Below are positions 21,084 to 37,505 of a stretch of 39,086 bases of DNA, one piece after another (position 1 is the stretch's first letter; every line of letters starts with the position of its first letter). The notes below the pieces were generated by a model that made no database searches, had not been told where the DNA came from, and saw nothing but the letters and a program-made list of their open reading frames with translations. The DNA comes from a virus (taxonomy: Duplodnaviria > Heunggongvirae > Uroviricota > Caudoviricetes): IMG/VR virus record IMGVR_UViG_2541047917_000011. The stretch is one strand, 5' to 3'. A program made the position numbers and the translations under genes.

Positions 21084-21807
21084 AACTGCTGCCTCCCCAT
21101 GTGAGATATCGCGGTGCCAGTTCGCGCAGGATGCGCTGCGGATAATGGCGGTTCTCCCGCCAGCTGGCCGCATTGCGTCCGGCATTCACCGTGGCGACAT
21201 GTCCGAACCAGCGGGTGCTGTCCAGACCTTTCTGTGATGCAAGCCGCCTGTCCCGTTGTACCCAGCCCAGACCACCGTTATAGCCCGACAGTGTCATGGC
21301 CATACGCTCGCAGTCACTGGCGGCGCTGACACGCTGCCACAGCCAGCGGTCATAGCTGACCAGCGCCCGGATAGCCCATGCCGGATTAAACGGCTCACGA
21401 CTGCTCAGCATCGGTATCAACTGGCTTATCCAGTCGGCAGTGGCAGGCATGAACTGCGCCAGTCCCTGAGCGCCAGCCGGCGAGATCGCATCAGGTCGCC
21501 AGCCGCTTTCCTGATGCAGTTGCGCGGCGAAATCGGCCACCGGCGCAGACAGTCCCCATTCAAGCCGGGCATTACGGATCACATCATCGCGATACTGCAG
21601 CGCAGCCTGCGGAGGTTGTGCTGCGCATGCCTGGCTAAAAAAGCCGCCACACCAGAGCAACATTGCGACAAAGAATACCCATGCCATATGAACCAGAAAG
21701 GTCCCGGCGCGAACTGACAGGCGTTCGGTTCTGATGAAGACCCGAAAGGCTTCGAAAGCCAGTTTCAGGGACATGCATACAATCCAGGTGATCTGCGGCC
21801 AGTTCAT
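21067..21807 (-). CDS. Endolysin, lytic transglycosylase (SLT domain) with N-terminal hydrophobic signal/SAR-like segment
   Basis: ESGWRPDAISPAGAQGLAQFMP motif; start 21807 lies 2 nt after the holin-like stop; alternative start ATG 21687 (MAWVFFVAMLLW...). Confidence 0.8.
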   Translation of the reverse strand: MNWPQITWIVCMSLKLAFEAFRVFIRTERLSVRAGTFLVHMAWVFFVAMLLWCGGFFSQACAAQPPQAALQYRDDVIRNARLEWGLSAPVADFAAQLHQESGWRPDAISPAGAQGLAQFMPATADWISQLIPMLSSREPFNPAWAIRALVSYDRWLWQRVSAASDCERMAMTLSGYNGGLGWVQRDRRLASQKGLDSTRWFGHVATVNAGRNAASWRENRHYPQRILRELAPRYLTWGGSSCVASG

Positions 21808-22160: not shown

Positions 22161-22290
22161 GTGTGTCTCCTTATCTGGTGGAGACAGCATCACAAATACA
22201 GGGCGCGAAGGATTTTAAAGCGCGTTAAGAGAGCCGGGGATACGGGATGTGCAGGATAAACGATGAATTATTCACAGAGGAGAATACGAT

Positions 22291-22767
22291 ATGACGCACA
22301 CACTGAATCCGGTCATCACTGTCACTGTGTCCGGTCCTGTGGGCAGCGGTAAAAGTTACGTACTGGCGCGGATAGAAGAGATGGTGAAACAGGAACTCGG
22401 AAACAGCGTCATTGTCGATGCTGCTGACGTGGAGAATGAGCGCCGTATGAATGGCGAAGATCTGACGACCTGGCAGAAGCCACGGGGTGGCACAGTGATC
22501 AGGCTGGAGGAATACACGGGACAGGGCCTGTTGTCATACGGCGAGGAGCGTATCTGTCGGACGAATGAGCTGCTGGATGTTATATGCCCCACGGGCCGGC
22601 AACCCTGGATACTGCCCGATGCACTGCATGCCACCATTGCGGCACTGATGACAGTTTACGATCAGGAGCTGCTCATGAAGGAGTTACGTAAACTCACCGG
22701 TCAGCCAACAGAATGTTGTTCGTCTCCGAAGTACGGCAAACAGGAAAACGCCCCGGATAATCCTTAA
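22291..22767 (+). CDS. Small P-loop NTPase / nucleotide-kinase-like protein of unknown function
   Basis: 158 aa; Walker A GPVGSGKS near N-terminus, candidate Walker B VIVDAAD; AGGAG RBS; only plus-strand gene amid minus-strand genes. Confidence 0.6.
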   Translation: MTHTLNPVITVTVSGPVGSGKSYVLARIEEMVKQELGNSVIVDAADVENERRMNGEDLTTWQKPRGGTVIRLEEYTGQGLLSYGEERICRTNELLDVICPTGRQPWILPDALHATIAALMTVYDQELLMKELRKLTGQPTECCSSPKYGKQENAPDNP

Positions 22768-22786
22768 GATACCTCCTGAACAGAAA

Positions 22787-22802
22787 CAGCCCTGAAGGGC
22801 TG
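22787..22802. terminator. Hairpin between convergent genes (P-loop gene and accessory operon)
   Basis: CAGCCC-tgaa-GGGCTG perfect stem; T-rich on minus strand and A-rich on plus strand. Confidence 0.45.
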
Positions 22803-22804
22803 CA

Positions 22805-23395
22805 CTAAAAAAAGAAGTGTATTATTGCCCAAACAGCTATAACGATGATTCCCAGCCCAAGAGCCGATTCTAACTTATCTTTGGCAGTCATTTTTACTGT
22901 TGTAGCGGGCGCAGGTAAGTCTTGCTGCTGTGGATTTTCTGTTAGTTGTTTACGAGAAGAAACATCGCCCCTGTTAGTTTGCTTCATGTTGATTACAGAT
23001 GCGTTATGGGCATTATCAGCAGCAATTGACTGAAGTTTTACAAAAGTTTTTGAATCTGTTTTAGCCAGAAGTAACCTATTTCCCGTAAACATTGCCTTAA
23101 AAGTGATAGTTTTTTTCGTCTTGTCCGCCGCACCAAGCAAACCTCCAATGACCAACCCTGCACCACCAAAGATTAATCCACCAAGCAAACCTGCGCCTGC
23201 CGCCTTACCTATACGGCTTTCCTCTTCACTATCCGCAAGTTCAATCGATAAAAGCTCTTCTTTCAGATTTAATACAATATTTTCAGGAAAGCCTTGTTTT
23301 GGTTTTTTGGCAAACACGATGGTACCGAACCCCATGCTTGCCCACCCTTTAGGAAAACTTCCTGCGATAACCTGAATCCCTGCCATGTTCATCAC
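22805..23395 (-). CDS. Membrane protein with glycine-zipper segment, unknown function
   Basis: 196 aa; GAGLLGGLIFGGAGLVIGGLLGA glycine zipper and C-terminal TM (LGLGIIVIAVWAIIHFFF); AT-rich. Confidence 0.5.
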   Translation of the reverse strand: MMNMAGIQVIAGSFPKGWASMGFGTIVFAKKPKQGFPENIVLNLKEELLSIELADSEEESRIGKAAGAGLLGGLIFGGAGLVIGGLLGAADKTKKTITFKAMFTGNRLLLAKTDSKTFVKLQSIAADNAHNASVINMKQTNRGDVSSRKQLTENPQQQDLPAPATTVKMTAKDKLESALGLGIIVIAVWAIIHFFF

Positions 23396-23476
23396 CTTTT
23401 ACATTAAAATTTCAGAACGCAGCATGATGCCGCCTTTGTCTTTTTTCTGATCCCATGGTAATTCAGCTGTTATTTT

Positions 23477-24463
23477 CTATTTAAGAATAAAACGGTATTT
23501 ACTGTCAGGAGTGCTTTGCTGATCAAGTAGCAGTGAACGACATGGAGCAGTCAAAACCCGAGCATAACTACCATCAGGGCTTATGTTAATGTAACAAACC
23601 TTGCCCTTAACACTATAATTTTCGGGGACGGATGCCTTTGCTGATACAGTAAATTTAAGGGTATGCCAGCCCGTTTTTTGCTTGTAGCTTGAAACCGAAT
23701 GGAAATCATCTGAGTACTTATTTAACCCTGGAAACATGCTGCGCAGTGCGGGGATGGAATCTTCTATTATTTTATCGTTGGTTTTAATGTTAAAAACGCT
23801 GGTTTCAGTAGAAGCTACTGCTTTGGCATTTCCCCATTTACCAGCGAACACAATCATTCCCACGAAAAATATTGCTACAAGAACTAACACTCCCCCCAAC
23901 ACTACTACATGAGGCTTCCGGCTTCTGGTTGGTACAGTTGCGACTGATTTTGCACCGCTTTCCGATGGAGGTGATAGAGTTTTACTCTCATCACGAATAT
24001 TCAGCAGATCATCAAAATAACCAAACACAGCCTGCAACTGCTCTTTGTCTAGGCCTTTAAGATGGGTTGTACCGAAATGCTTCAGACAGTATCTGTCACG
24101 GTCAAGACGATACCCAGGGTCAGTAAGCGCCATTATTTTGCTGACCAGAAGATTACAGTCCTTCATATTCTGGATCTGTTGTGCATATCTCTGAAGGATC
24201 TCAACCGCACCATGATAATCAGCCGCAGTCATTTCATTAACTGTTTTGGTATTAAGTTTCGTGTGGATCGTCATCCATAGCTCGCGCTTACTTTCCCCCA
24301 GATCAACCAATTCATCCATCAATCTGTGTAAATCGCGTTTTTGCAGCAACGAAATTGGTTGCTGGGCCGAAGGAAGTATGTCAGCAGAATAGTTATGAAT
24401 GGTAACATCACCGCTGACAACGTTACCCACATCCCCGTTAACTGTTTGCTTCTCTTTACTCAT
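23477..24463 (-). CDS. Single-pass membrane protein, unknown function, translationally coupled to repressor
   Basis: 328 aa; start ATG overlaps repressor stop (ATGA); N-terminal cytoplasmic domain, TM helix (VVVLGGVLVLVAIFFVGMIVFAG), C-terminal extracytoplasmic domain. Confidence 0.55.
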   Translation of the reverse strand: MSKEKQTVNGDVGNVVSGDVTIHNYSADILPSAQQPISLLQKRDLHRLMDELVDLGESKRELWMTIHTKLNTKTVNEMTAADYHGAVEILQRYAQQIQNMKDCNLLVSKIMALTDPGYRLDRDRYCLKHFGTTHLKGLDKEQLQAVFGYFDDLLNIRDESKTLSPPSESGAKSVATVPTRSRKPHVVVLGGVLVLVAIFFVGMIVFAGKWGNAKAVASTETSVFNIKTNDKIIEDSIPALRSMFPGLNKYSDDFHSVSSYKQKTGWHTLKFTVSAKASVPENYSVKGKVCYINISPDGSYARVLTAPCRSLLLDQQSTPDSKYRFILK

Positions 24464-24885
24464 CTTCTCTTGGTATTTTTGTTCATTATTCCACCTGTTC
24501 CTATGGTTACGTTACCTTTGATAACATTCCCCAGAACATCTCCATGAATAACCTGTTCCGCCCGTTCTCTGGAGGAGCCAGTAGTCAAGGCCGACAAAAC
24601 TGAACCTTTGACCTGTAATGGTGCCTGCCGGTAGTGCTGCAGTAACTCCATTTCATCACGTGATAAAGTTATACCTGATGACTCCCCGGTAAGAATGAAC
24701 TGTACATTGGCCCCAATTCTTGCAAAGGCTGCAAGTAACTCACCTCCGGGAACAGCAACCCCTCGTTCATATTTCCCCCACATTTCTCTTGAAACGCCAC
24801 AAAGGGCTGCTACTTCAGCCTGCTTGAGTGATAACCGCGAACGCTCAGCTTTGAACCGCGACGCGCAAAGAGAATCAAAATTCAC
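24460..24885 (-). CDS. Prophage repressor, XRE-family HTH
   Basis: HTH_XRE pattern (RLSLKQAEVAALCGVSREMWGKYERG); GTG 24885 with GAGG RBS preferred over ATG 24921, which would bury the early promoter inside the gene. Confidence 0.65.
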   Translation of the reverse strand: MNFDSLCASRFKAERSRLSLKQAEVAALCGVSREMWGKYERGVAVPGGELLAAFARIGANVQFILTGESSGITLSRDEMELLQHYRQAPLQVKGSVLSALTTGSSRERAEQVIHGDVLGNVIKGNVTIGTGGIMNKNTKRR

Positions 24886-24895
24886 ATAAACCTCA

Positions 24896-24924
24896 TTGAC
24901 AATGAGAACAATAGTTCTCATAAT
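24896..24924 (+). promoter_or_regulatory. Early promoter: -35 TTGACA (24896-24901), 17-bp spacer, -10 CATAAT (24919-24924), with 20-bp palindromic operator ATGAGAAC-AATA-GTTCTCAT (24902-24921) in the spacer
   Basis: Read directly from sequence; sits 48 bp upstream of the ner-like ATG and between divergent repressor and early genes. Confidence 0.55.
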
Positions 24925-24971
24925 CTATCACATATAAAACAAACATCATTGCATCAACAAAGGAGACAACA

Positions 24972-25160
24972 ATGACTTCCGAACAAGTTAAAAATCTCTT
25001 CCGTCAGCGTGGTATCACGTTTACCCGCTGGGCCGAAGAACACGGCTACAGCCGCAATGAGGTCTATCGTGTTCTCAATGGACAGACCAAAGCTCGTTAC
25101 GGCAAAGCCCATGAAATTGCCGTAAAACTGGGATTAAAACCCACGTCAAATGCGGCATAA
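24972..25160 (+). CDS. Small DNA-binding regulator at the Ner/Cro position
   Basis: 62 aa basic HTH-like protein; AGGAGA RBS; first gene of the early operon. Confidence 0.6.
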   Translation: MTSEQVKNLFRQRGITFTRWAEEHGYSRNEVYRVLNGQTKARYGKAHEIAVKLGLKPTSNAA

Positions 25161-25212
25161 ATTTTCCACATATGCAACAGGTTATCACATATTGCAAAAA
25201 TGGAAATGTGAC

Positions 25213-25521
25213 ATGAGTAAAGTAAATATTTCCAGTTCTGGGACCCGCATCCTACGTGTACTCAAAGCTCTACGCGGTCATGCTCTGAACGGTGTTTCTA
25301 ACGGTGAACTGGCATCAGCCCTGGGGGAGTCCCCGGCGAATATCAATCGAGCACTTAATACCCTTATTGAAGAGGGACTGGCCATGAAATTAGAGAACGG
25401 ACGTTTCGCACCGGGAATCCAGTTACTACAGATCGCCATGGCTCACAGTCACGAGATGGCGCGTGCACAGGATCGTATTAACGAAATCAACCAACGAGTT
25501 ATTTCAGGTAGTCGTTTGTAA
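25213..25521 (+). CDS. IclR-type winged-helix HTH protein (DNA-binding domain only)
   Basis: TRILRVLKALRGH...NGELASALGESPANINRALNTLIEEGL resembles IclR N-terminal domains; start chosen at internal ATG 25213. Confidence 0.5.
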   Translation: MSKVNISSSGTRILRVLKALRGHALNGVSNGELASALGESPANINRALNTLIEEGLAMKLENGRFAPGIQLLQIAMAHSHEMARAQDRINEINQRVISGSRL

Positions 25522-25531
25522 GGAGTAATCA

Positions 25532-26446
25532 ATGGGACGCACCAAATCACCCGTTAACACTGAACTGAATGTTGAGGTTCCGCTGTCAGATAACATCAAT
25601 GTCAATTTGAACGCTATGACACAGCATCGCATGGAAATTATGCAGCAGTTTGGTGATGGACTGCCTTATGAACGTGATCGCATTGTTCACGAAGCACGTT
25701 TTTATATGGCGCAGAGTGCTGAATCTATGCTGGAAGCGGGTAAGCGGCTGATCATCTTAAAAGAAAATGAGCCACACGGTGATTTTACAAACATTTTAGA
25801 AAATGAACTCGGACTTGCACCACAAGTTGCTCGCCGCATGATGCAAGCCAGTATGAAGTTTTTGGGAGAAGGTGATGAGCCAACAAAACGCTCAACGTTG
25901 AGCGTTTTGGGGAAAGCCAAACTGTACGACCTGATGGTTCTGGATAATGAAGAACTTGATGAATTGGCCGACGGCGGCACAGTTGCCGGCCTGACGCTTG
26001 ACGACGTTGATCGCATGTCAGTACGTGAATTGCGTCAGGCCCTGCGCGAAGCGCGCGAAACCAACGCAGCACAACAGCGCGTACTCGCCGACAAAAATGA
26101 AAAAATAGATTCACTCTCCACCAGACTGGAGAAGAAATCCCGTATTCAGCCGCCTGAGCCTGATGAGGAGGTTAAGAAGCTGCGGGCGGAAGTAACAGCA
26201 TTAGCGGTTGAGGCGGAATCTGCTATCGCCGTCCGACTGTCCAGCGCTTTTGAGACGCTGTGCGCATATTGTGCTGAAAACATGATTGATACCCCCAGAG
26301 ACTTCATGGCAGGCCTGGTCTGTCAACTGGAAAGCACAGCGCGTAGCCTGCGCTCCACATTTGACCTGCCGGACGAGCCAACAGGCAATGCAGCGCCTTC
26401 ATGGCTGACTGAGCCGACGCCACAGATTAACGGGCTGGAGGCATAA
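25532..26446 (+). CDS. Hypothetical early protein (coiled-coil rich)
   Basis: 304 aa ORF immediately upstream of transposase. Confidence 0.5.
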   Translation: MGRTKSPVNTELNVEVPLSDNINVNLNAMTQHRMEIMQQFGDGLPYERDRIVHEARFYMAQSAESMLEAGKRLIILKENEPHGDFTNILENELGLAPQVARRMMQASMKFLGEGDEPTKRSTLSVLGKAKLYDLMVLDNEELDELADGGTVAGLTLDDVDRMSVRELRQALREARETNAAQQRVLADKNEKIDSLSTRLEKKSRIQPPEPDEEVKKLRAEVTALAVEAESAIAVRLSSAFETLCAYCAENMIDTPRDFMAGLVCQLESTARSLRSTFDLPDEPTGNAAPSWLTEPTPQINGLEA

Positions 26447-26449
26447 CCA

Positions 26450-28219
26450 ATGAATGCTGCCCTGACTGAACGACTGGTTTATGTCGCCCGCGCGGCACGT
26501 GACGCGGGGCATGGTAAACGCGGTGCAATATACGACGCTGCCTGTGCTGAACTTGGCATGTCCCGCGCCACTCTGCTGCGCAGGCTGAAGGAGGTCTCTG
26601 TGACTGATAAACGCAAAAAACGCGCCGATGCCGGGCGCAGCGCCCTGACCCGCGACGAAGCCGCGCTGATATCTGCCACACTGCGTGAGGCCACCCGCAA
26701 GAACGGTAAGCGTCTCTATTCCATCGCAGATGCAGTGGAAACCCTGCGGGCTAACGGCTTTATCACCGCAGGCAGAACAGATGAAACCACCAGTGAGTTT
26801 TTCCCGTTGTCTGAAGATGCCATCAGCCGTGCTCTGCGTAACTATGGCCTGCACCCGGAACAACTGGATGCCCCTGCACCACATACCGAAGTGGCCAGTC
26901 TGCATCCCAATCATGTCTGGCAGATTGACGCCTCACTCTGCACGCTTTACTACCTGAGCAATGGACATAAAGGGCTGCAGGTGATGGACAGCGCGAAGTT
27001 CTACAAGAACAAGCCCGCTAACCTTGCCCGTATCGCCAGTGACCGTGTGTGGAGTTACGAGATTACCGACCATGCCAGCGGCTGGATTTACGTTGAGTAT
27101 GTGACGGGCGCGGAATCAGGTGAGAACCTGTGTTCTGTGCTTATCAACGCCATGCAGGAGCGTGGCGGCGCAGACGTGCTGCACGGCGTGCCGAAAATAC
27201 TCTATCTCGACCCCGGCTCGGCAAACACCGCGGGTATGACGAAAAACATGTGCCGCTCACTGGGCATCGACCTGATAGCGCACAAGCCGCATAACGCCCG
27301 CGCCACCGGACAGGTGGAAAAGGCGCGTGACATTATCGAACGCAAGCTGGAGCCGGGTCTGAAGTTCCGGCCGGTTCACAGTCTGGAAGAACTCAACGCG
27401 CTGGCCGCGAAATGGCGCAGCCACTTTAACGCCACGGCTGTTCACAGCCGCCACGGTAAAACCCGCACGGATATCTGGCTGAAGATTACTGCTGAGCAGC
27501 TGAAAAAAGCGCCTTCCGTTGAGGTATGTCGTGAACTGGCTGTGGCGGCACCAGAACTCCGCAAAGTCACGCCAAAACTTCGTGTCTCGTTCCGGGGCAC
27601 TGAATTTGACGTATCAACGGTACCGGGCGTACTGGTTGGTGAAAAACTGATGATTACCCGTAACCCATGGCGCAGCGATGTGGCACAGGTGGTTCTGACC
27701 GGTGAGGACGGCCACGAGACGTTCTTCCTGGTCGAAGAGGTCAGAAAGAACGAGTTTGGCTTTGCTGAAGGCGCGGCGGTATTTGGCGAAAGTTACAAAG
27801 CCCTGCCGGAAACCCCGGCACAGATGGCGGCAAAAGAAACCGAAGCGCTGGTTACCGGTACAGACAACGCCGCAGATGCAGCCGCCGCACGCAAGGCGAA
27901 GGCGCTGCCGTTCGGCGGGCGGCTTGACCCGTATAAACATATCGACGACACCACACTTCCGGCCTATATGCCGAAGCGTGGTCAGGCCTCTGACGTACGC
28001 GGGCCGCGCACTGAACAACGTCCCATGACTCATGTGGAGGCCGCGAAAGCCCTGCGCGATAAGTTCAGCGCCGACGGCCTTACCTGGACGCCGGAACATT
28101 ACCGCCAGTTAACGGCACAGTACCCGGACGGCGTACCGGAAGCCGCACTGGATGAAGTCATGGCCACGCTGACCACACCGGCCCGCAGCAGTGTTATCAG
28201 CATTGTTAACGGCAACTGA
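26450..28219 (+). CDS. DDE transposase, rve (integrase catalytic core) family; not MuA-like
   Basis: 589 aa; N-terminal HTH, catalytic-core-like WQID ... YLDPGSAN ... E spacing. Confidence 0.85.
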   Translation: MNAALTERLVYVARAARDAGHGKRGAIYDAACAELGMSRATLLRRLKEVSVTDKRKKRADAGRSALTRDEAALISATLREATRKNGKRLYSIADAVETLRANGFITAGRTDETTSEFFPLSEDAISRALRNYGLHPEQLDAPAPHTEVASLHPNHVWQIDASLCTLYYLSNGHKGLQVMDSAKFYKNKPANLARIASDRVWSYEITDHASGWIYVEYVTGAESGENLCSVLINAMQERGGADVLHGVPKILYLDPGSANTAGMTKNMCRSLGIDLIAHKPHNARATGQVEKARDIIERKLEPGLKFRPVHSLEELNALAAKWRSHFNATAVHSRHGKTRTDIWLKITAEQLKKAPSVEVCRELAVAAPELRKVTPKLRVSFRGTEFDVSTVPGVLVGEKLMITRNPWRSDVAQVVLTGEDGHETFFLVEEVRKNEFGFAEGAAVFGESYKALPETPAQMAAKETEALVTGTDNAADAAAARKAKALPFGGRLDPYKHIDDTTLPAYMPKRGQASDVRGPRTEQRPMTHVEAAKALRDKFSADGLTWTPEHYRQLTAQYPDGVPEAALDEVMATLTTPARSSVISIVNGN

Positions 28220-28229
28220 GGAGGGAAAC

Positions 28230-29396
28230 ATGCTGGTACTGAAGCAGCAACTGAAAGAGGCCCGTATTCCACAGGCGGTGGTGGCGAGAGCTGTCGATGT
28301 TTCTGAGGCCACGCTGGCCCAGATTGTGAATCATAACGCGTGGCCCCGCACCAGCCCCGGAGAAGTGCGCCGGCGTCTTGCGTCCTGGCTGGAAAGTCAG
28401 GGGATTGATACAACGAAGAGTTTTGATGCTGTACAGGGCGCGGCCACGCCCCGTACAGCGGGTACCACAGATAAAACGAGCCTCAGTGAGGAAGAGAATA
28501 TGTTACTCAAAAAACAGGTGTTATTTCCAGCAACCAAAAAAGCGTTTGGTCTTTTCCGTGACCCGTTCGCCGACGAAGCCATGCAGGGTTCTGATGATGT
28601 GTTCACCACCCCGGACATTCGCTACGTGCGTGAGGCGCTGTACCAGACAGCCCGTCATGGTGGGTTTATGGCCGTCATCGGTGAGTCCGGTGCGGGTAAA
28701 TCCACGCTGCGCCGCGACCTGACTGAACGTATCAACCGCGAGAATGCGCCGGTAATTGTTATCGAGCCATACATCATCGCTATGGAAGACAACGATGTGA
28801 AAGGGAAAACCCTGAAGGCAGCAGCTATTGCCGAAGCCATTATCAGTACCATCGCACCACTGGAAAGCATCAGACGCAGTCAGGACGCCCGTTTTCGCCA
28901 GTTGCATCGCGTCCTGAAAGACAGCAGCCAGGCGGGGTTCAGCCACGTTCTGGTGATTGAGGAGGCCCACAGTCTGCCCATTCCGACACTGAAACACCTC
29001 AAACGCTTTTTTGAGCTGGAGTCCGGTTTCAAAAAACTGCTGTCCATCGTGCTGATTGGCCAGCCGGAACTGGCGACAAAACTGTCTGAACGCAATATGG
29101 AAGTCCGTGAAGTCGTTCAGCGCTGTGAGGTGGTCGAACTTCTGCCTCTGGACAATAACCTTGAAGAATTTCTGACGTTCAAACTGCAACGGGCCGGTAA
29201 ACAGCTGACGGACATTATGGACGCCGGTGCAGTGGATGCCATACGTGCCCGCCTGAGCAATCCGGGAAGTCACCGTAAAAATATGGTCAGCCTGCTGTAT
29301 CCGCTGGCCGTCAGTAACCTGGTAATAGCCGCCATGAATCTGGCCGCTGAAATCGGGGTTCCACAGGTCAACGCTGACGTTGTCAAAGGGGTTTAA
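28230..29396 (+). CDS. Transposition ATPase, MuB-like AAA+ target-DNA activator
   Basis: N-terminal HTH, Walker A GESGAGKST, Walker B-like VLVIEEAH; GGAGGG RBS before ATG 28230; directly follows transposase. Confidence 0.75.
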   Translation: MLVLKQQLKEARIPQAVVARAVDVSEATLAQIVNHNAWPRTSPGEVRRRLASWLESQGIDTTKSFDAVQGAATPRTAGTTDKTSLSEEENMLLKKQVLFPATKKAFGLFRDPFADEAMQGSDDVFTTPDIRYVREALYQTARHGGFMAVIGESGAGKSTLRRDLTERINRENAPVIVIEPYIIAMEDNDVKGKTLKAAAIAEAIISTIAPLESIRRSQDARFRQLHRVLKDSSQAGFSHVLVIEEAHSLPIPTLKHLKRFFELESGFKKLLSIVLIGQPELATKLSERNMEVREVVQRCEVVELLPLDNNLEEFLTFKLQRAGKQLTDIMDAGAVDAIRARLSNPGSHRKNMVSLLYPLAVSNLVIAAMNLAAEIGVPQVNADVVKGV

Positions 29397-29398
29397 TA

Positions 29399-29668
29399 AT
29401 GAAATCCACCACAGGTATCAACCAGCAAATCAGCAAAGTGCAGTCAGCCATTATGGCGCTTAAGGCGACGAACACGGATGTACAAAGCATCACCATCAGG
29501 GGTAACAAACCTGTCATCCGCGTTTCCCGGAGTGCGCATTGCATGCGCATGCTTGAGCAGGGAAAGGCCTGTTATCTGTATACCGGACATGACCACAGGG
29601 GATATTTCCGTCAGGGCGTTTTCGAACTGCACGGCTGTCGCGTCGTGTGGCCGGAATCTTTGTGGTAA
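29399..29668 (+). CDS. Hypothetical early protein
   Basis: 89 aa ORF 3 nt after the B gene. Confidence 0.45.
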   Translation: MKSTTGINQQISKVQSAIMALKATNTDVQSITIRGNKPVIRVSRSAHCMRMLEQGKACYLYTGHDHRGYFRQGVFELHGCRVVWPESLW

Positions 29669-29695
29669 TCAGCACAACTGGAGAAATCATAAAAA

Positions 29696-30226
29696 ATGGC
29701 AAAAAGTACAAAAGGTGCAAAACGTATCAAGGCCGCAGCAGCACTCTGGGTGCCGGGGACACGTGAAGAGGTCATTGAGGGAATCAGACTACTCGGTGAC
29801 GCACAACGTGAACTGGTCAGGGCTGAAACAGAAATGAATGACGCCATTGGCGATATCACCGCACGTTATGCCCCGCTCACCGAGAGCCTGAAAAAACGCA
29901 TGGCCGAACTGCAGTCCGGTATTCAGACATGGTGTGAGGCACACCGTGATGAACTGACCGGCAACGGGAAGGTGAAGTTCGCTAACCTCACCACCGGCGA
30001 GGTGCAGTGGCGAAACCGTCCGCCATCAGTCAGTATCCGTGGGGCGGATAATGTTATTGAATTACTGAGACGTCTGGGGCTTGAGCGCTTTATTCGTGTA
30101 AAAGAGGAAATAAATAAAGACGCTATCCTGAATGAAAAAGAGGCCGTGAAAAATATTCCCGGTATTTCCATTAAAAGCGACATTGAGGATTTTTCAATAA
30201 TTCCTTTTGAGCAGGATGTGCAGTAA
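29696..30226 (+). CDS. gam: Host-nuclease inhibitor Gam (Mu Gam / Ku-like)
   Basis: 176 aa, family-typical sequence and position after A/B. Confidence 0.8.
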   Translation: MAKSTKGAKRIKAAAALWVPGTREEVIEGIRLLGDAQRELVRAETEMNDAIGDITARYAPLTESLKKRMAELQSGIQTWCEAHRDELTGNGKVKFANLTTGEVQWRNRPPSVSIRGADNVIELLRRLGLERFIRVKEEINKDAILNEKEAVKNIPGISIKSDIEDFSIIPFEQDVQ

Positions 30227-30323
30227 ACACACCACGTTAATTATTTAATAAAAACATTTTCTTTTTTATTCCGACGTCAGCGCCGCGGGCTTCTGCACGC
30301 CGGAAACAGAGGAGAATTAAATC

Positions 30324-30518
30324 ATGATATTTAAATGTATTCAGTGCGAGAGGGATATAACAGCCCTGCGTTTTCACAGCGCCATCGCCGTGATGTCCGG
30401 TAAATACCACATCCCTGCGGTACGCGTCACCCTGGTCTGCCCGTACTGCAGCCAGCATTTTTCGGCAGACGTGCCCGTCATGGAATTCTCCCGCCCTGAC
30501 AGGGAGGACTCGCAATGA
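30324..30518 (+). CDS. Small CxxC...CxxC zinc-ribbon-like protein
   Basis: 64 aa with two Cys pairs (CIQC ... CPYC); GAGGAG RBS. Confidence 0.4.
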   Translation: MIFKCIQCERDITALRFHSAIAVMSGKYHIPAVRVTLVCPYCSQHFSADVPVMEFSRPDREDSQ

Positions 30519-30787
30519 TTACCCCACAGGAAGCACGACAGCGCACCCGAACCCTTGTTGAACACTATGTCAACGAGTGTGAATGCCGCGACCTCACCGA
30601 TGTGAAGCACGTCCTGACGGCGCTAATCAGCATGACCGCTCAAGCCATTGTGGCGACCAACGGAAAGGCGGCTGCCCTGCAGGTACTGGTGAACACACTA
30701 ACCCACACGGCAGCGCATGAGGTGCCGTACCGGATGGAAACCACTGCAGAAGGCGGCCTGCACATCACCGTCAGCCGGAAGCACTGA
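30515..30787 (+). CDS. Hypothetical early protein
   Basis: 90 aa ORF, 4-nt overlap with upstream gene. Confidence 0.4.
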   Translation: MITPQEARQRTRTLVEHYVNECECRDLTDVKHVLTALISMTAQAIVATNGKAAALQVLVNTLTHTAAHEVPYRMETTAEGGLHITVSRKH

Positions 30788-30796
30788 GGGCGCGGC

Positions 30797-31093
30797 ATGA
30801 CACGGAACACCATACTCACCCGCACCGCCCTCTACCGTCTGGCCCTGCAGCGTTTCGGGCCGGACGCACAGGCCCTGAAACTGACAGAAGAGGCCGCTGA
30901 ACTGGCGGCCAGTGCTGCCCGCAATCTGAACGGACAGGGCAGCGAAAGCGACCTCGCGGCAGAGCTGGCAGACGTGGAAATCATGACAGAGCAATTGCGC
31001 CTTCAGGGGATGGACCGGCTGATTGACTTCCACAAACAGAAAAAACTGGAACGTCTGGCTGCACGACTGGGCGTGATTTACACGAACGAGTAA
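30797..31093 (+). CDS. MazG-like nucleotide pyrophosphohydrolase domain protein
   Basis: 98 aa with EEAAELA and AELADVEIM motifs typical of all-alpha NTP-PPase (MazG) fold. Confidence 0.5.
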   Translation: MTRNTILTRTALYRLALQRFGPDAQALKLTEEAAELAASAARNLNGQGSESDLAAELADVEIMTEQLRLQGMDRLIDFHKQKKLERLAARLGVIYTNE

Positions 31094-31107
31094 CCGGGAG
31101 GCATTCA

Positions 31108-31323
31108 ATGGCTGACATACTCAGGGAAATCACCGCATGGATACTGATTCTTACTGGCCTGGCGACATGCCTCAGTGCGGGGGCAGCCCTGGCTGCCCTG
31201 CTGATGCACATAACAACACAGTGGTTATGGGAAAAGCTTAAAGCAGCATACAGCCTGAAAGAGCTGTCCGACGCTGTCCGGGCATGGAAACGGCAGAAAA
31301 ATACCGGAGATACAGAACAATGA
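31108..31323 (+). CDS. Small membrane protein
   Basis: 71 aa, one hydrophobic helix. Confidence 0.35.
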   Translation: MADILREITAWILILTGLATCLSAGAALAALLMHITTQWLWEKLKAAYSLKELSDAVRAWKRQKNTGDTEQ

Positions 31324-32003
31324 CAGACCAGAATAAACACATTGAGAAACTGAAAAAGTTGCTGGCGCTGGCCGCATCCGGCAACCCGCACGAGGCCGCT
31401 CTGGCACTGCGCCGAGCCCGTAAACTGATGGATGTTCACGGCATCACACATTCCGACATTGCTATGAGTGATATTGATGAAACCATCAGTCACTACTGGC
31501 CGACAGGCAGTCTCCGTCCACCGCGCTACATGCTGGGCCTGATGAACATCATCCGCGAGGTATTTGGTGTTAACTCCATCATTCACCCCGGCACGCATCC
31601 GTCTGTGGGGTTCTACGGCAACCGGGAACGTGCGGCACTGGCTGCATACACCTGGGAAGTGCTGGCCCGTCAGCTGAAAAAGGCGCGTCAGCAGTATATC
31701 AGTGCACAGAACAAAAGAATAAAAACCGCCACCCGCACCAGCCGTGGAGACCAGTTTGCCGAAGGCTGGGTGCTGGCCGTTATCAGTGAAATACAGTCCT
31801 TTGCCCTGACCGATGATGAGCGTGAACTGATGCAGCAGTGGCTGGAACATAAATACCCGCAGACGCAAACCACCAGGGCGCGTAAACCGGGAAGAAGCCG
31901 CAATGGCGACGCCTCGCGCTATGCGGGGTTTCGTGAAGGGCAGAACGTCAGACTGCACCGCCCGGTCAGTGGGCAGGAACAACAGAAACTGGAGGCCAGA
32001 TGA
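31320..32003 (+). CDS. Hypothetical early protein
   Basis: Start chosen at ATG 31320 overlapping upstream stop (ATGA). Confidence 0.45.
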   Translation: MTDQNKHIEKLKKLLALAASGNPHEAALALRRARKLMDVHGITHSDIAMSDIDETISHYWPTGSLRPPRYMLGLMNIIREVFGVNSIIHPGTHPSVGFYGNRERAALAAYTWEVLARQLKKARQQYISAQNKRIKTATRTSRGDQFAEGWVLAVISEIQSFALTDDERELMQQWLEHKYPQTQTTRARKPGRSRNGDASRYAGFREGQNVRLHRPVSGQEQQKLEAR

Positions 32004-32219
32004 TTACGCTATCAGGTAAAAGCCGGAAATTAAAAGCCTGCCGAATATCTGCCAGATACCTTTTTGCCCGCGCCTTTTTTAAGAACGTCAGGCCGGGGAT
32101 CACAATTGGTGTTATTGCCGGACGCGAACAGGTTGAAAAATACATGTCAGGTGCATGGTGGAATAACGACCCTGTCATTGCTGCCCGTAATATTCATATC
32201 GAATGGGGAGGTATTCAGA

Positions 32220-32426
32220 ATGACTACTGAAACCATTGTCTGTTTTCTTTTCTGGTATATGTACGCAGGATCATGCAGCGCAAGACTTCATCGTTCCCTG
32301 GGCTATGGCAGGCACTACGACACCGCGCATTACATCCTGTACATGACCGCCGTCATGTTGTTCTGGCCAGTCACCCTGCCAGCTGCAACCGACATTGTTG
32401 CCGACAGACTGAAAAAAAGGAGATGA
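32220..32426 (+). CDS. Small membrane protein
   Basis: 68 aa, GGGGAGG RBS before ATG 32220, two hydrophobic helices. Confidence 0.35.
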   Translation: MTTETIVCFLFWYMYAGSCSARLHRSLGYGRHYDTAHYILYMTAVMLFWPVTLPAATDIVADRLKKRR

Positions 32427-32427
32427 T

Positions 32428-32877
32428 ATGCAGAAAAAACGCCTGATACAGCTTATCCATATTGCCCGTAATGAACTGGGTATGGATGAAGACACCTACC
32501 GCCAGATGTTACAGGGGCTGACCGGTAAAGCCTCAACCAAAGGAATGGATACCACACAACTAAACTGCGTGCTGGAATCCATGAAAAAGAAAGGCTTTCG
32601 CGTTAAACCAGCCAGAAAAGCCAGCTCCGGTTTACCGCTGGATAACCATCCGCAGTCCAGGAAAATTCGTGCGCTATGGCTTGAAATGGCTGCTGCCGGC
32701 ATTGTTCGTGACCGTTCAGAAAATGCATTAGCGAGGTGGATCAAGCGGGAAACGGGCATCAGCGCCCTGCGCTGGCTCAGTACTGAACAGGCAAGCAGTG
32801 TTATTGAGAAACTGAAGAAGTGGCAGCGCAGAGCTGCGGGAGTCAAACATGAGCGACCTGAATCAGTTTCGAAGTAA
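32428..32877 (+). CDS. GemA-like regulatory protein (Mu gp16, DUF1018 type)
   Basis: 149 aa, family-typical sequence and position just before Mor. Confidence 0.7.
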   Translation: MQKKRLIQLIHIARNELGMDEDTYRQMLQGLTGKASTKGMDTTQLNCVLESMKKKGFRVKPARKASSGLPLDNHPQSRKIRALWLEMAAAGIVRDRSENALARWIKRETGISALRWLSTEQASSVIEKLKKWQRRAAGVKHERPESVSK

Positions 32878-33238
32878 GGGGCCGGAACTCCTGGTGGAAC
32901 TGGCACAGCATACCTCTGAGACCGTTCGCGAGATTATTGATATTGAGCCCGAAGTTGCCGACCAGATTGGTCAGGCCGTCGCGAACCGAATGATGCAGGT
33001 CTGGGGCGGGCAAAACGTTTATTTCCCGATGGGCATGGTATGGAAGGTCAGTCAGCGCGACCGGGAAATCTTCAGGGAGTTTAACGGACGCAACCACCAC
33101 GAACTGGCCCGCAAATTTGGTGTTTCGCTTCAGTGGGTCTACAGCGTGGTTAAGCGGGTAAGAAAAGAAGAACTGGATCGGATGCAGGGCAAGCTATTTG
33201 CTGATGAACCCGATGCAGATACGGAGAAAAAAGAGTAA
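32849..33238 (+). CDS. mor: Mor/C-family transcriptional activator
   Basis: 129 aa with the C-terminal HTH typical of Mu Mor/C; last gene of the early arm. Confidence 0.75.
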   Translation: MSDLNQFRSKGPELLVELAQHTSETVREIIDIEPEVADQIGQAVANRMMQVWGGQNVYFPMGMVWKVSQRDREIFREFNGRNHHELARKFGVSLQWVYSVVKRVRKEELDRMQGKLFADEPDADTEKKE

Positions 33239-33267
33239 TATCTGCAATCAGGCTGGCGCGAGTTCTG

Positions 33268-33324
<57 letters not shown>

Positions 33325-33325
33325 A

Positions 33326-33705
<380 letters not shown>

Positions 33706-33893
33706 AAGTCGTTCCCTCAGGAAGAAGTGATGAGTGACATTTTTCACAGCATCCAAACAATTCTATTTCATCGTTAGCCCTTGTCCTGTAAGGCAATTGC
33801 CTTAACACGCCCGCTATTCATCCTGCCGAACGTAACCGAACGCGCCGGATACATGAGCGGGGTTATCGAGTCGTTAGATCGAGGTATCCGGTT

Positions 33894-35099
33894 TTGAGCA
33901 AGACACCACTGACAGCAAAGGCCATAGACGCCGCACAACCAAAGGACAAGCAATACAAACTCACCGATTCACTGACGCCCGGCCTGTTTTTGCTGGTGCA
34001 TCCCAACGGATCAAAGTATTGGCGATTCAGGTTCTGGATGGACAAAAAAGAGTATTTGCAGGCTATTGGAGTGTACCCGCTAATCAGCCTCAAGGAAGCC
34101 CGTAAACGCGCTACAGAGAGCCGATCTCTGATTGCTAATGGAATTAATCCAGTGGAAGAAGCACGCAAGGAAAAAGCCATTGATGCGCTCAACATGGCGG
34201 CAGGTTTTAAGACGGTAGCGGAGGACTGGCTGGCTACCAGGGTCAGCGGGTGGTCAGAGTCCTACACGAAACAGGTTAGATCGGCACTGGAAAAAGATGT
34301 TTACCCCGTGCTGGGGAAGCGGTCAATTGTCGATATAACGGCCCGTGACGTGCTGGCATTGCTTCAGAAGAAAGAGCGTACCGCACCGGAACAAGCCAGG
34401 AAGCTACGCCAGCGTATCGGGGAGATCTTCAAATTTGCCGTTATCACCGAACTGGTTAACCGAAATCCGGTTGCAGATCTGGACTCGGCCCTGAAAGCCC
34501 GCCGACCAGGTCACAATGCATGGCTGCAAATTAGTGAAATTCCGCCCTTCTACAAAGCCCTTGAGAGAGCCGGGAGCGTTCAGATTCAGACGGCAATACG
34601 TTTGCTTATATTAACGGCATTAAGGACCGCAGAACTGCGTTTAATGCGCTGGGAATGGGTAGATCTGGAGTCAGCAACAATCACCCTACCCGCTGAAGTC
34701 ATGAAGGCCCGCCGACCGCACGTAGTCCCGTTATCCCGGCAGGCGGTCGAGCTATTACAGGACCAGTTTACCCGCAGCGGATACAGTGCTTTCGTCTTTC
34801 CGGGTCGATTCATGGATAAGCCATTGTCAGCCAGTGCGATACTGAAGGCGCTTGAGAGGATCGGCTATAAAGCCCTTGTCACTGGTCACGGATGGCGCAC
34901 AACATTCAGCACCGCACTTAACGAGTCCGGCAGGTACTCACCAGACTGGATCGAGATACAACTGGCCCACGTTCCAAAGGGAATCAGGGGAGTTTACAAT
35001 CAGGCGGCCTACCTGAAGCAACGACGAGCAATGATGCAATCGTACGCGGACGCCATTGATTCAATACTGGCTGGTGACGGCAATCCGCTGGAACCGTGA
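33894..35099 (+). CDS. intZ: Tyrosine site-specific integrase, P4 family
   Basis: 401 aa; N-terminal DUF4102-like arm domain, C-terminal HxxR and catalytic Tyr; TTG start; symbol assigned from genomic context, not from a search. Confidence 0.85.
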   Translation: MSKTPLTAKAIDAAQPKDKQYKLTDSLTPGLFLLVHPNGSKYWRFRFWMDKKEYLQAIGVYPLISLKEARKRATESRSLIANGINPVEEARKEKAIDALNMAAGFKTVAEDWLATRVSGWSESYTKQVRSALEKDVYPVLGKRSIVDITARDVLALLQKKERTAPEQARKLRQRIGEIFKFAVITELVNRNPVADLDSALKARRPGHNAWLQISEIPPFYKALERAGSVQIQTAIRLLILTALRTAELRLMRWEWVDLESATITLPAEVMKARRPHVVPLSRQAVELLQDQFTRSGYSAFVFPGRFMDKPLSASAILKALERIGYKALVTGHGWRTTFSTALNESGRYSPDWIEIQLAHVPKGIRGVYNQAAYLKQRRAMMQSYADAIDSILAGDGNPLEP

Positions 35100-35345
35100 A
35101 CTATAAGGCCGGATTCGTCCGGCTTTTCTTTCGCCTTACTGGTATAAAAGGTTAACAGGTTACACAACCTATCACTATTTTATCCTGTTATCCTTTTATA
35201 CAGCTATACCAATAAAATCAATGATTAAGCCAAGTTTGTAATAAAAAATCCGGGGATCGAAAATAGGATCAACGCAACAAAAAGCCCGGAAGGCCGCTAA
35301 CCAATCCGGGCGATATGGGAAACAAGTAAAAAGGAGAAATCCCAC

Positions 35346-36119
35346 ATGAATATTTTACCAACCGCCTACGCCCCACGGCAAGGCGAATCACTCGGTAAAC
35401 ACAGCCTTCAGAAAATCGACGCGATCCCGGAAGAAGTACGGAGCGCCATTGATGATGGCCTGAATGATATCCGCTTTAATGGTTATCGCTGGGAATGCAA
35501 CGCCAAAACAGGCTGGGCGCGTGTATCACCGATTTCATCACCTGCCGATGCAGAACCTGAATCACCAGAACAAAGCCAGGCAAACGCCCGCGCTGACTTC
35601 CTGGCGTTACAAGGTGAGTATTTATCAGTCACGCAGGAAACTAAAAGCGAGAAGAAATCAGCTACTGATATCGTGAACGAGCTACGCAGTAAGGCCGCTA
35701 AAACTTCGCAGACAGCACCACAGCAGGAAGCGCCGGAAGAACCGGAACAAGCGGAAGCCATGCAGGATAAAGAGACACAATACCAAACGGAAGAAAAAGG
35801 AATTTATTGCAGCTATGTCTGTTTGGGTGCGGCACGTAAGGCATTTGTCAGAAGTGGTTGCGAGAATAAAGCTAAAGCTACAGCCTGGAGCGTATTATCC
35901 AGCATTGCATCAGCAGCAAGAAAGCAGAATGATGGATCTTATGTATCTGAAGTTTGCCAGGCAAAAATAGCTGATGAATGGGGCATGAATCGCCGCACCG
36001 TAATTCGCCAGATGAAAATCCTGGTTGAGTTAGGACTCATTGAGCCATACGGGGAATATGTTATTGGTCAGCACGCAAGAAAATACAGAATGCTTTTTCA
36101 GGTCGAGAACGCAAGATAA
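35346..36119 (+). CDS. Winged-helix DNA-binding protein, candidate iteron-binding replication initiator
   Basis: 257 aa, acidic linker, C-terminal HTH (IADEWGMNRRTVIRQMKILVELGLIE); four iterons begin 65 bp downstream. Confidence 0.45.
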   Translation: MNILPTAYAPRQGESLGKHSLQKIDAIPEEVRSAIDDGLNDIRFNGYRWECNAKTGWARVSPISSPADAEPESPEQSQANARADFLALQGEYLSVTQETKSEKKSATDIVNELRSKAAKTSQTAPQQEAPEEPEQAEAMQDKETQYQTEEKGIYCSYVCLGAARKAFVRSGCENKAKATAWSVLSSIASAARKQNDGSYVSEVCQAKIADEWGMNRRTVIRQMKILVELGLIEPYGEYVIGQHARKYRMLFQVENAR

Positions 36120-36137
36120 CGACTAAAACGCATCAGT

Positions 36138-36167
36138 GGGTCACCTAAAATTGTGGCCCTTTTTATT
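36138..36167 (+). terminator. Intrinsic terminator after rep-like gene
   Basis: Stem GGGTCAC / GTGGCCC (one G-U pair), 8-nt loop, followed by TTTTTATT. Confidence 0.5.
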
Positions 36168-36183
36168 ACTTAAACCATCAACA

Positions 36184-36293
36184 GACGTGTGACATTTGGG
36201 ACACAGGTACGTGTGACATTTGGGATACAGGTCAGAGGGTGACGTGTGACATTTGGGATACAGGTCAGGCCATGACGTGTGACATTTGGGGCA
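36184..36293. repeat. Four direct iterons ACGTGTGACATTTGGG(A/G)YAC..., spacing 24/33/33 bp
   Basis: Core TGTGACATTTGGG found at 36188, 36212, 36245 and 36278. Confidence 0.8.
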
Positions 36294-37201
36294 CACATAG
36301 TATGAGATCTGTATATTCCTTTTTTCTTTTTAAGAGAAAGTAAGAGGCGCGCATTTTAAATGAACACAAACAAGCAACAAGCCCAGCGGACCTTCGGAAG
36401 ACTTCGAGCAATCGCCAGCTCAAAAGACGGTCTGGCAGTGATGGTTATCATCGACAGCTTTCTGAGCTACCGCACAGACACACAGCAGCAGTAAGCAAAC
36501 CGAATGGAAAGCAAAGCGCAAAAAACTCACTCACTGTAAAGCCGATGGGTTTTATCGCGTATACAGACCAGACAGGAAACAGCAGCAAAGCAGCGTATAG
36601 CCAGGTGCAGACAGTACCATCACACGACGCACAGCAGGCTGAGGTGACCACTCAAGCAAGTTTATCCCCGCCGCCGACCACCGCAAACCATCCTGATAGT
36701 GCCAAATTCGAACGGAGTGCTACCTTAAACGCGATTAACACACATAAGCGCTACACTTGCTTACCTGAAAACTTCACAGCGTCACAGCGCGTTTTAGACA
36801 CGTTAAAATCGATGCGATTTCATTAATTTTTCAGCCATCCAGAAATCGGCTTCATATCAAGCCGATTCATCAGCGCGGCGTCCTGCATTGCAGGTTATCG
36901 AAAGAATCAATAACTTTCGCCAATGGCGAAAGTTAAACAATCAATAAAGTCCAGAGTTGGACTATTCACCCAAATTTGGGGCAATGAAATCACACAGATC
37001 CTGCCAGGCTATTCCATCCACCACACAGAACGCTGAGATCTGATATTACCGCCGCACCATTCCACGCCAGACGAATCAAAACAGGCTTACCCTTCCAAGT
37101 GGATAGCTAAAAATTAAGGCTGTCAGAATGCGTTATATTGCGTTTAAACGGCATCGAATTTTAATGTGCGCAATGGTGCCAGATTACAGGCAAAAAAAAT
37201 C

Positions 37202-37230
37202 CCGCCGGAGAAAGCGGGGAAGTGAAATGA
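37202..37230 (-). terminator. Strong rho-independent terminator on minus strand
   Basis: Minus strand reads CCCGC-tttctccg-GCGGG followed by eight T. Confidence 0.6.
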
Positions 37231-37495: not shown

Positions 37496-37505
37496 AGGTG
37501 AGAAC

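Follow-up and report, generated by a model that had tools for sequence, protein, structure and literature searches.

Viral sequence record points strongly to a BcepMu-type transposable prophage in Escherichia coli eutB

The 39,086-nucleotide stretch of DNA analyzed here in full (the window; Caudoviricetes record IMGVR_UViG_2541047917_000011) almost certainly holds, at positions 1-33400, most of a ~37.6-kb BcepMu-type transposable temperate myophage that has transposed into the Escherichia coli gene eutB, with positions 24972-33238 as its early operon. The phage type itself is already known: BcepMu-type rve transposases in a divergent genome layout have been on record since 2004 and are ordinary in E. 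coli. An earlier note made from the letters of the window had placed an rve-family transposase in an early arm at 24972-33238, running away from Mu-type late genes, and its coordinates and gene layout are accurate against the open reading frame (ORF) map and Pfam.

Identity and prevalence of the element

Over positions 1-33405, the window is 99.75-99.94% identical in DNA (blastn) to a complete prophage of E. coli Eco889, which is 37,566 bp long and inserted in irp2 in a closed chromosome. The two are essentially one phage. Gene-by-gene tblastn found BcepMu matches for 34 of the 48 window ORFs, strictly collinear over the whole element. Transposase identity by tblastn is 99.2% to Escherichia phage PhiKM (PQ738613; Bcepmuvirus in the GenBank taxonomy), 93.7% to Phi06_2974 B (KM389306), and 68-69% to BcepMu (gp09, 68%), phiE255, and other Burkholderia and Ralstonia phages. 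Identity is 56-57% to Pseudomonas B3-type phages and 39-43% to Stenotrophomonas and cyanobacterial phages. PhiKM, Phi06_2974 B, Klebsiella phage KP12 (OM835952), and the prophages of Eco889 and many other strains are the closest known relatives. Outside the immunity and cargo region, PhiKM and the window share 98.6-99.6% DNA identity; within it, PhiKM has a different repressor and a cargo block that includes a Dam methylase, unlike the window element.

The earlier note had proposed a distinct lineage. The element is indeed distinct from Mu, but its lineage is already described and very common: of 5426 complete E. coli genomes, 640 (about 12%) carry the module formed by the transposase and its ATPase partner (the B protein), 470 of them at an identity of at least 99%, with up to three copies per genome. 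O25b:H4-ST131 genomes are among the matches. Across the Enterobacterales, relatives of the transposase with 70-94% protein identity occur in Salmonella, Klebsiella, Enterobacter, Serratia, Yersinia, Citrobacter, Dickeya, Pectobacterium, and other genera. Prophage finders have already listed BcepMu/E255-type regions in uropathogenic E. coli and in Salmonella (PMC10955171, PMC13017927), and Bcepmuvirus phages have been found among inducible human-gut prophages.

Divergent layout and comparison with BcepMu, B3, and Mu

Minus-strand genes run from the left edge of the window to 22193, a mixed block occupies 22291-24921, and a plus-strand run covers 24972-33238 (ORF map). Position 24972 opens the ATG of a gene for a 62-amino-acid helix-turn-helix (HTH) protein, 33238 closes the stop codon of a Mor-family gene, and all genes between them lie on the plus strand. 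As the earlier note had read it, the early and late arms run apart from an interface that holds the repressor, whereas in Mu (NC_000929) everything from ner to gin lies on one strand and only the c repressor is opposed; relative to the late genes, the early arm of the window is inverted. The BcepMu-style arrangement that it had also recognized extends gene for gene. BcepMu (NC_005882) and phiE255 have the same order on the same strands, with Mor, GemA through to B, the transposase, gp10, the regulator, and the Ner-like gene on one strand, and the repressor, lysis genes, Mu-like head genes, and P2-like tail genes on the opposite one. BcepMu and the window element also have in common TG...CA termini, the same end-repeat motif at the same spacing, a single Mor/C activator, and a candidate late-promoter motif.

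In Lavigne et al. 2009 (PMC2771037), BcepMu is described as having two divergent clusters with lysogeny control at their interface, followed by the lysis cassette; its TerL is Mu-related, its tail P2-related, and its ends are CA dinucleotides, and related prophages are noted in many other bacteria. TG...CA termini are typical of BcepMu-related prophages with an rve core (PMC2628397). The element and BcepMu are not the same throughout. BcepMu is without the Mu-type Gam that the window element carries, the middle early genes and the cargo genes of the element are unlike those of BcepMu, and the acyltransferase gp53 is missing from the element. Complete E. coli copies have Gin and an invertible tail-fibre segment, unlike BcepMu, which is reported (PMC2771037) to be without a tail-fibre inversion system.

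Phages B3, JBD25, JBD67, and others have a homologous transposase; in the records of B3-type phages its gene is on the reverse strand, ~5-8 kb in from the left end of the genome, which fits the window layout. B3 is a siphovirus, and its structural genes are different.

A divergent arrangement could also be an artefact, in which assembly fused the early genes of one element with the late genes of a different one. The earlier note had named this as a possible refutation, and GC content does fall sharply (to 0.42-0.47) at 23000-26000, between the arms, exactly where PhiKM differs from the window. The same junctions nonetheless run unbroken, at 99.9% identity, through the closed Eco889 chromosome and are present in many other complete genomes. 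Collinearity with BcepMu also crosses the junction, through the repressor, the Ner-like gene, the regulator, the gp10 homologue, and the transposase, and relatives differ in the low-GC block, a cargo and immunity region, as expected of morons. An assembly chimera is barely conceivable in the face of these data.

The resemblance to Mu called for closer weighing. Like Mu in the logic of its lifestyle, the window element pairs a DDE transposase with an AAA+ protein, encodes Gam, GemA, and Mor along with a terminase, portal, F, and G of Mu type, and has TG...CA ends and a short target duplication. Such hallmarks (Gam at 62% identity, GemA, Mor, TerS gp27, TerL, portal, F, and G), a Gin in the Eco889 copy that is 76% identical to Mu Gin, and the grouping by PHROGs of the transposase with MuA and of the ATPase with MuB might be taken to indicate a canonical Mu-family (Muvirus) prophage with diverged A and B proteins and an early region inverted in this contig alone. 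The transposase and ATPase, however, lack the Pfam domains of MuA and the C-terminal domain of MuB, and neither pairwise nor profile comparison links them significantly to MuA and MuB. Homologues of Mu c and ner are missing, and the tail genes are not those of Mu. Mu makes a 5-bp duplication, has two activators (Mor and C), and has a repressor of another family; the element has a 6-bp duplication, one Mor/C activator, and a P2-type tail. Finally, the supposedly inverted layout is common to BcepMu, PhiKM, and the Eco889 prophage, and B3-type records also have the transposase gene near one end on the reverse strand, so the layout is ancestral rather than local. A canonical Mu prophage is accordingly very improbable.

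The BcepMu-type assignment can be put in terms of shared characters. An rve transposase, divergent clusters, TG...CA termini with a short duplication at random host sites, and a Mu-type head on a P2-type tail mark BcepMu-like phages, and the element has all of them, the termini and duplication as read from near-identical copies; the marks of Muvirus, namely MuA and MuB domains, co-directional arms, a 5-bp duplication, and separate Mor and C proteins, are absent from it.

The transposase and its ATPase partner

Pfam finds rve as the only domain of the transposase. Residues D160, D254, and E290 are invariant in 21 transposase homologues, with 35 residues between D254 and E290; in an alignment to foamy-virus integrase, the latter two coincide with its catalytic D and E. 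D160/D254/E290 is the predicted catalytic triad, in the DD(35)E spacing of rve enzymes. In MuA the triad is D269/D336/E392, and 55 residues separate its second D from the E (D-x55-E). Immediately downstream, the AAA+ ATPase has the Walker A motif GESGAGKST and an N-terminal HTH-like segment.

The earlier note had held the transposase to be of rve type rather than MuA-like, and at the level of sequence this holds. MuA scores with Pfam DDE_2, HTH_Tnp_Mu_1, HTH_Tnp_Mu_2, and Mu-transpos_C, and MuB with Phage-MuB_C; none of these was found in the window transposase or ATPase. BLASTP of the transposase against MuA gave E=0.47, and an hhalign comparison of a 21-member transposase family profile with MuA gave a probability of 0.2%, the two not being alignable at that depth, so that neither pairwise nor profile comparison places the enzyme within MuA proper. 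The ATPase gave E=2.6 against MuB (BLASTP). With MuA or MuB as tblastn query, nothing in the window was returned at E<=0.1, and tblastn with MuA, MuB, Mu c, and Mu ner gave no credible match in either the window or the complete Eco889 prophage.

This contrast should not be overstated, as rve and MuA differ at the family level inside one DDE superfamily. PHROGs, which groups proteins by remote homology, places the transposase and MuA together in phrog_310 and the ATPase and MuB together in phrog_296 ('DNA transposition protein'). The match of the transposase to phrog_310 starts at profile position 129, without the part equivalent to the N-terminal enhancer-binding domain of MuA, which the window transposase lacks. 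For other transposable-prophage transposases, AlphaFold gave a MuA-like architecture minus the enhancer-binding domain (PMC8705779).

Tn552, the TnsB+TnsC pair of Tn7 and CRISPR-associated transposons (CAST), and the IstA+IstB pair of IS21 resemble the window system in their rve core, DD(35)E spacing, and AAA+ partner, which in the window is the adjacent AAA_22-type ATPase. The window transposase differs from the Tn552, TnsB, and IstA systems in serving as the replication engine of a 37.6-kb phage. A Tn552-like transposon with cargo was considered and was rejected along with the chimeric and canonical-Mu explanations. Lavigne et al. 2009, after Summer et al. 2004, call the BcepMu transposase unrelated to MuA and a distant member of the Tn552-IS1604 group (PMC2771037). 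The Tn552-IS1604 kinship of BcepMu-type transposases is given here from the literature, where both sources cite Summer et al. 2004 (PMC2771037, PMC2628397).

Prophage ends and insertion into eutB

At the Mor end, homology to prophages at five other loci runs to ...AAGTCTAATCA (window position 33400) and then gives way to differing host genes. The five loci are a glutathionylspermidine-synthase-like gene, a site upstream of dadA, an outer-membrane transport gene, irp2, and hycE; with the window, the end is defined by six different flanks. Intact eutB of ECONIH4 reads ...ATCG|CTCAGCAC... at the insertion point. Because the shared prophage homology stops at 33400 and intact eutB reads across it, we place the prophage terminus there, cutting eutB near codon 120. 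A 9-bp overlap between the eutB and phage-end homologies was considered as microhomology and rejected, as it comes from BLAST extension over one mismatch and from similar target sequences.

The end motif G(A/C)GATAWWT is present in two inverted copies, at 33356-33366 and 33379-33389. In the Eco889 prophage and in BcepMu, each end likewise carries the motif twice, 12-20 and 35-43 nucleotides in from the terminus, and its copies are putative transposase-binding sites. In Eco889, the Mor end starts TGATTAGAC... and the gin end finishes ...GCGGCGCATCA, giving TG...CA termini. The ends of near-identical complete copies, which occupy six or more different sites, read TGAT...ATCA, and perfect 6-bp target duplications flank the prophage in three of three such copies (CCTGAG in Eco889, GCTGAT in NCTC9022, and GCTGCG in MINF_1A). 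This agrees with B3, whose transposase is 57% identical and for which a 6-bp duplication is reported against 5 bp for Mu (PMC8705779). The flanking hexamers at the Mor end of the six sites are CTCAGC, CGCAGC, GTTCAG, TTTAGC, CTCAGG, and ATCAGC, a small sample that suggests a target bias of N-T-Y-A-G-S.

In the window, CTCAGC at 33401-33406 is the expected copy of the duplication. Its partner would lie on the far side of the element, where the left end TGATGCGCC... is expected beside a second CTCAGC, followed by the remainder of eutB (...GGTTTCATCG). The earlier note had proposed locating the ends and the duplication; the termini and the 6-bp duplication are established in near-identical copies, and the window contributes one end, at 33400.

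Insertion sites differ among the copies: eutB for the window element, irp2 for Eco889, and hycE and elsewhere for others. The eutB junction occurs in none of the 5426 complete E. coli genomes, so the insertion looks recent and is private to the source strain. Use of ethanolamine is probably lost in that strain, in which the insertion probably disrupts the downstream eut genes as well.

The element might be of BcepMu type and still be a defective, immobile remnant, given that one end is visible in the window and that the tape-measure gene of Eco889 is split in its annotation by the Prokaryotic Genome Annotation Pipeline (PGAP). The homologous ORFs of the window are nevertheless all full length, including an uninterrupted 983-amino-acid tape-measure gene, and the eutB insertion, absent from all 5426 complete genomes, is hence recent. 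Near-identical copies also occupy six or more different sites, up to three in one genome, and are flanked by clean 6-bp duplications, and PhiKM and Phi06_2974 B were deposited as phage records. A dead remnant is thus unlikely.

At the gin end of complete copies, a serine recombinase gene (Eco889 locus 37444-38016; 76% identity to Mu Gin) stands beside an inverted set of tail-fibre and assembly genes; together they form a Mu-like host-range switch. On the other side of the eutB junction, positions 33894-39086 hold a small integrative island with a P4-type tyrosine integrase (33894-35099), an AlpA-like HTH gene (37506-37697), and other small genes. This island is unrelated to the BcepMu-type prophage, and we take its position to resemble that of CPZ-55 in E. 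coli K-12.

Candidate regulatory sequences

A perfect palindrome, GAGAAC-aata-GTTCTC (24904-24919), lies in the spacer of the candidate early promoter and is a candidate repressor operator. On the late strand, the pattern T[TA]AA-N4-7-WTTAAWAKM occurs four times, always in an intergenic gap, against 0.1 expected from block shuffles, a figure that is purely descriptive, as the pattern was set post hoc from the sites. There are no further copies on either strand of the window. In BcepMu, too, the motif stands upstream of gp32 and of the holin gene, and on account of this conservation and of their positional specificity the four sites are good candidates for Mor-dependent late promoters. A repeat search upstream of the lysis genes found no Mor-binding dyad; the motif came from comparison of the intergenic gaps.

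The Mor protein is ~30% identical to both Mor and C of Mu, and the window and the complete Eco889 copy alike have a single Mor/C-family locus. An imperfect 16-nucleotide inverted repeat with a T-rich loop (33246-33290) lies just past the Mor stop codon; as a possible terminator, it may curb early-operon transcription that would otherwise run on into host DNA.

Gene content of the prophage

Coordinates and annotations are collected in Table 1. The start codon of the winged-helix regulator follows the PGAP model in Eco889. The small early genes between Gam and GemA gave no tblastn match in BcepMu or Mu.

Table 1 Features of the window, with positions, strands, and the evidence for each.
Feature	Position	Strand	Evidence or remark
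Late arm, lysis to tail fibre	1-22193	-	Pfam; tblastn 31-76% to BcepMu gp21-gp51, same order; Eco889 PGAP agrees
Baseplate genes	432-5330	-	Contractile P2-type tail
Candidate late promoter	2476-2493	-	Motif; upstream of gpW/J/I/tail-fibre genes
Tape measure, 983 amino acids	5330-8281	-	Uninterrupted; ORF map
Candidate late promoter	8827-8844	-	Motif; upstream of tail-assembly and tape-measure genes
Tail tube	9156-9677	-	Contractile P2-type tail
Tail sheath	9677-11104	-	76% to BcepMu
Candidate late promoter	14744-14760	-	Motif; upstream of protease/scaffold, Mu PI position; same motif upstream of BcepMu gp32
Mu G-like virion morphogenesis protein	14903-15361	-	Pfam Phage_tail_S; then protease/scaffold and major capsid
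Mu F-like protein (Phage_Mu_F)	15364-16212	-	48% to Mu F
Portal (Portal_Mu)	16166-17662	-	27% to Mu portal
TerL	17662-19257	-	49% to Mu TerL
TerS (Phage_Mu_Gp27)	19254-19799	-	Pfam
SLT endolysin	21067-21807	-	Then spanin-like and membrane genes
Holin	21810-22160/22193	-	Start of late arm
Candidate Mor-dependent late promoter	22211-22228	-	TTAACGCGCTTTAAAATC; upstream of lysis genes
Low-GC cargo (moron) region, variable	22291-24463	mixed	GC 0.42-0.44, against 0.55-0.60 in the remaining prophage
P-loop-like gene, 158 amino acids	22291-22767	+	Cargo region
Gly-rich membrane protein, ~193 amino acids	22805-23386	-	Cargo region
328-amino-acid protein	23477-24463	-	Cargo region; start overlaps repressor stop
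cI/Cro-type HTH repressor	24460-24921	-	Pfam HTH_3/HTH_31; 38.5% identity to BcepMu gp17 (annotated cro/cI repressor)
Candidate early promoter	24896-24924	+	TTGACA, 17-nucleotide spacer, CATAAT; 11/12 consensus matches (promoter scan)
Ner-position small HTH protein, first early-operon gene	24972-25160	+	HTH_31 E=4e-5, 24.2 bits, under the 27-bit Pfam cut-off; 45% to BcepMu gp16
Winged-helix (IclR-type HTH) regulator	25213-25521	+	Pfam HTH_IclR; phrog_1368 transcriptional regulator; 33% to BcepMu gp12
DUF3102 protein, directly upstream of transposase	25532-26446	+	Pfam DUF3102; 41% to BcepMu gp10
rve-family DDE transposase, 589 amino acids	26450-28219	+	Pfam rve only, 35.8 bits against a cut-off of 32.6
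AAA+ (AAA_22/ExeA-type) transposition ATPase, MuB position	28230-29396	+	AAA_22 72.9 bits; 59% to BcepMu gp08
Gam, shields DNA ends from host nucleases	29696-30226	+	Phage_Mu_Gam 1e-40; 62% to Mu Gam; no BcepMu counterpart
Small early genes, including a DUF2786/DUF7168 protein (31320-32003)	30324-32426	+	Pfam; PGAP models in Eco889
GemA	32428-32877	+	Pfam GemA 8e-41; 44% to BcepMu gp02, 36% to Mu GemA
Mor/C-family activator, last early-operon gene	32849-33238	+	Pfam Mor 1e-43; 54% to BcepMu gp01
Prophage terminus	33356-33400	+	Ends ...TCA at 33400; homology to prophages at five other sites stops just after 33400
Host eutB 5' fragment, ~120 codons	33401-33756	-	Pfam EutB profile positions 1-91 of 435; ORF 33394-33756

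The earlier note had called the late genes Mu-type. For the head and packaging genes this stands, with Phage_Mu_Gp27, Portal_Mu, and Phage_Mu_F domains and a TerL 49% identical to that of Mu; the tail is of P2 type by annotation. Late-arm tblastn matches to Mu are confined to TerL, portal, F, G, and a weak one to baseplate J/gp47, the last being the sole match to Mu among the tail genes. The synteny comparison that the earlier note had suggested therefore gives collinearity with BcepMu and few genes matching Mu. The tail genes carry P2-type names (FI, FII, U, X, D, V, W, J, I, and H) in the BcepMu, PhiKM, and PGAP records, and it is through these record names that the tail is known here as P2-type. 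The tail-fibre gene extends past the left edge of the window.

Direct repeats are present within the tape-measure gene (5931-6483; ~290-bp units, 92% identity) and the tail-fibre gene (1-224). The number of tape-measure repeats differs between the window and Eco889, in which the split gene is annotated by PGAP as a pseudogene.

The cargo genes (22291-24463) belong to PHROGs of unknown function and gave no Pfam match and no significant PADLOC match. No BcepMu match was found for this region by tblastn, and PhiKM has other genes there. The 328-amino-acid gene is probably expressed in the lysogen, because its start overlaps the stop codon of the repressor. The block may be an exclusion or defence slot. 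On the minus strand, the C-terminus of the repressor (HGDVLGNVIKGNVTIGTGG; 24460-24530) and the N-terminus of the next protein (NGDVGNVVSGDVTIHNY; 24390-24463) have in common a short GDV-GNV-G-VTI repeat-like motif.

Discussion

Several points weigh against the reading of the window as a BcepMu-type prophage in eutB, or against parts of it. At the DNA level, blastn aligns ~10.4 kb of the 33.4 kb with BcepMu, at 64-70% identity. In ICTV practice, a genus corresponds to ~70% nucleotide identity over the genome, so this similarity falls below the genus level, and strict membership of the genus Bcepmuvirus is doubtful despite the GenBank label on PhiKM. The window holds one prophage end; the left end, with the tail-fibre and gin genes, lies outside it, and the completeness, second end, and target duplication of the eutB copy are extrapolated from near-identical copies. 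The early promoter, the operator, the late promoters (the last with their post hoc pattern), and the transposase-binding role of the end motif are predictions from sequence, as are the induction and transposition of the eutB copy.

Structural modelling of the transposase also counts on this side. An AlphaFold model built from a 21-sequence alignment (67-94% identity) is poor in the catalytic core, where the predicted local distance difference test (pLDDT) score is <50 for residues 152-365. Only its N-terminal helical domains, a beta-barrel (residues 369-430), and the C-terminal helices are modelled with confidence. Foldseek with this low-confidence model ranked IS21 IstA and ShCAST TnsB first and retroviral integrases next, at template modelling (TM) scores of ~0.1; MuA was absent from the 50 matches listed. 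The ranking weakly favours an rve-type enzyme paired with an AAA+ partner. Searches of solved structures by sequence with the transposase and B protein gave marginal matches only, to retroviral integrase cores (E >= 0.005) and generic P-loop proteins, and matched neither MuA nor TnsB. Assignment to the rve DDE enzymes is made on the conserved triad and Pfam; the RNase H-like core expected of such enzymes is the part that the model gives with low confidence.

The following cycle can be proposed for a BcepMu-type prophage with this gene set. In the lysogen, the cI-type repressor (24460-24921) would be made together with the downstream cargo genes and would shut off the strong sigma-70 early promoter (24896-24924) through the palindromic operator between its -35 and -10 elements. 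Upon induction, the early operon would yield the Ner-position HTH protein and the winged-helix regulator. The rve-family DD(35)E transposase would bind the paired G(A/C)GATAWWT sites at both ends, and the AAA+ MuB-like ATPase would capture target DNA and hand it over to the transposase. With Gam guarding the DNA ends, the genome would be amplified by replicative transposition with a 6-bp stagger. As Mor is the sole Mor/C-family activator, we infer that it drives the late operons directly; it would switch them on through four TTAA-N-TTTAAWATC promoters on the opposite strand, with the late operons starting 11 kb away from mor. The Mu-type terminase would then package integrated copies by the headful, with host DNA attached.

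More broadly, the Enterobacterales lineage may be a genus-level mosaic separate from the Bcepmuviruses of Burkholderia, a proposal for and against which we hold the balance to be even. Such a mosaic would combine a BcepMu backbone with a Mu-derived Gam and, in complete copies, a likewise Mu-derived Gin cassette with invertible tail fibres, one Mor with four late promoters, 6-bp duplications biased to N-T-Y-A-G-S, and a swappable low-GC cargo slot that is cotranscribed with the repressor and possibly carries exclusion or defence genes.

As a discovery, the element matters little, as the first account of an rve transposase and a divergent layout in BcepMu-type phages goes back to 2004. What the analysis adds is at the level of annotation: the boundary, the eutB disruption, the 6-bp duplication, the conserved end sites, the candidate late promoters, and the swappable cargo slot. 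Its practical value lies in a prophage boundary correctly annotated at 33400 and in the finding that eutB of the source strain, and probably the downstream eut genes, were disrupted when the phage transposed there, an event private to the strain and hence recent. For clinical E. coli lineages, the element is a candidate for an active insertional mutagen.

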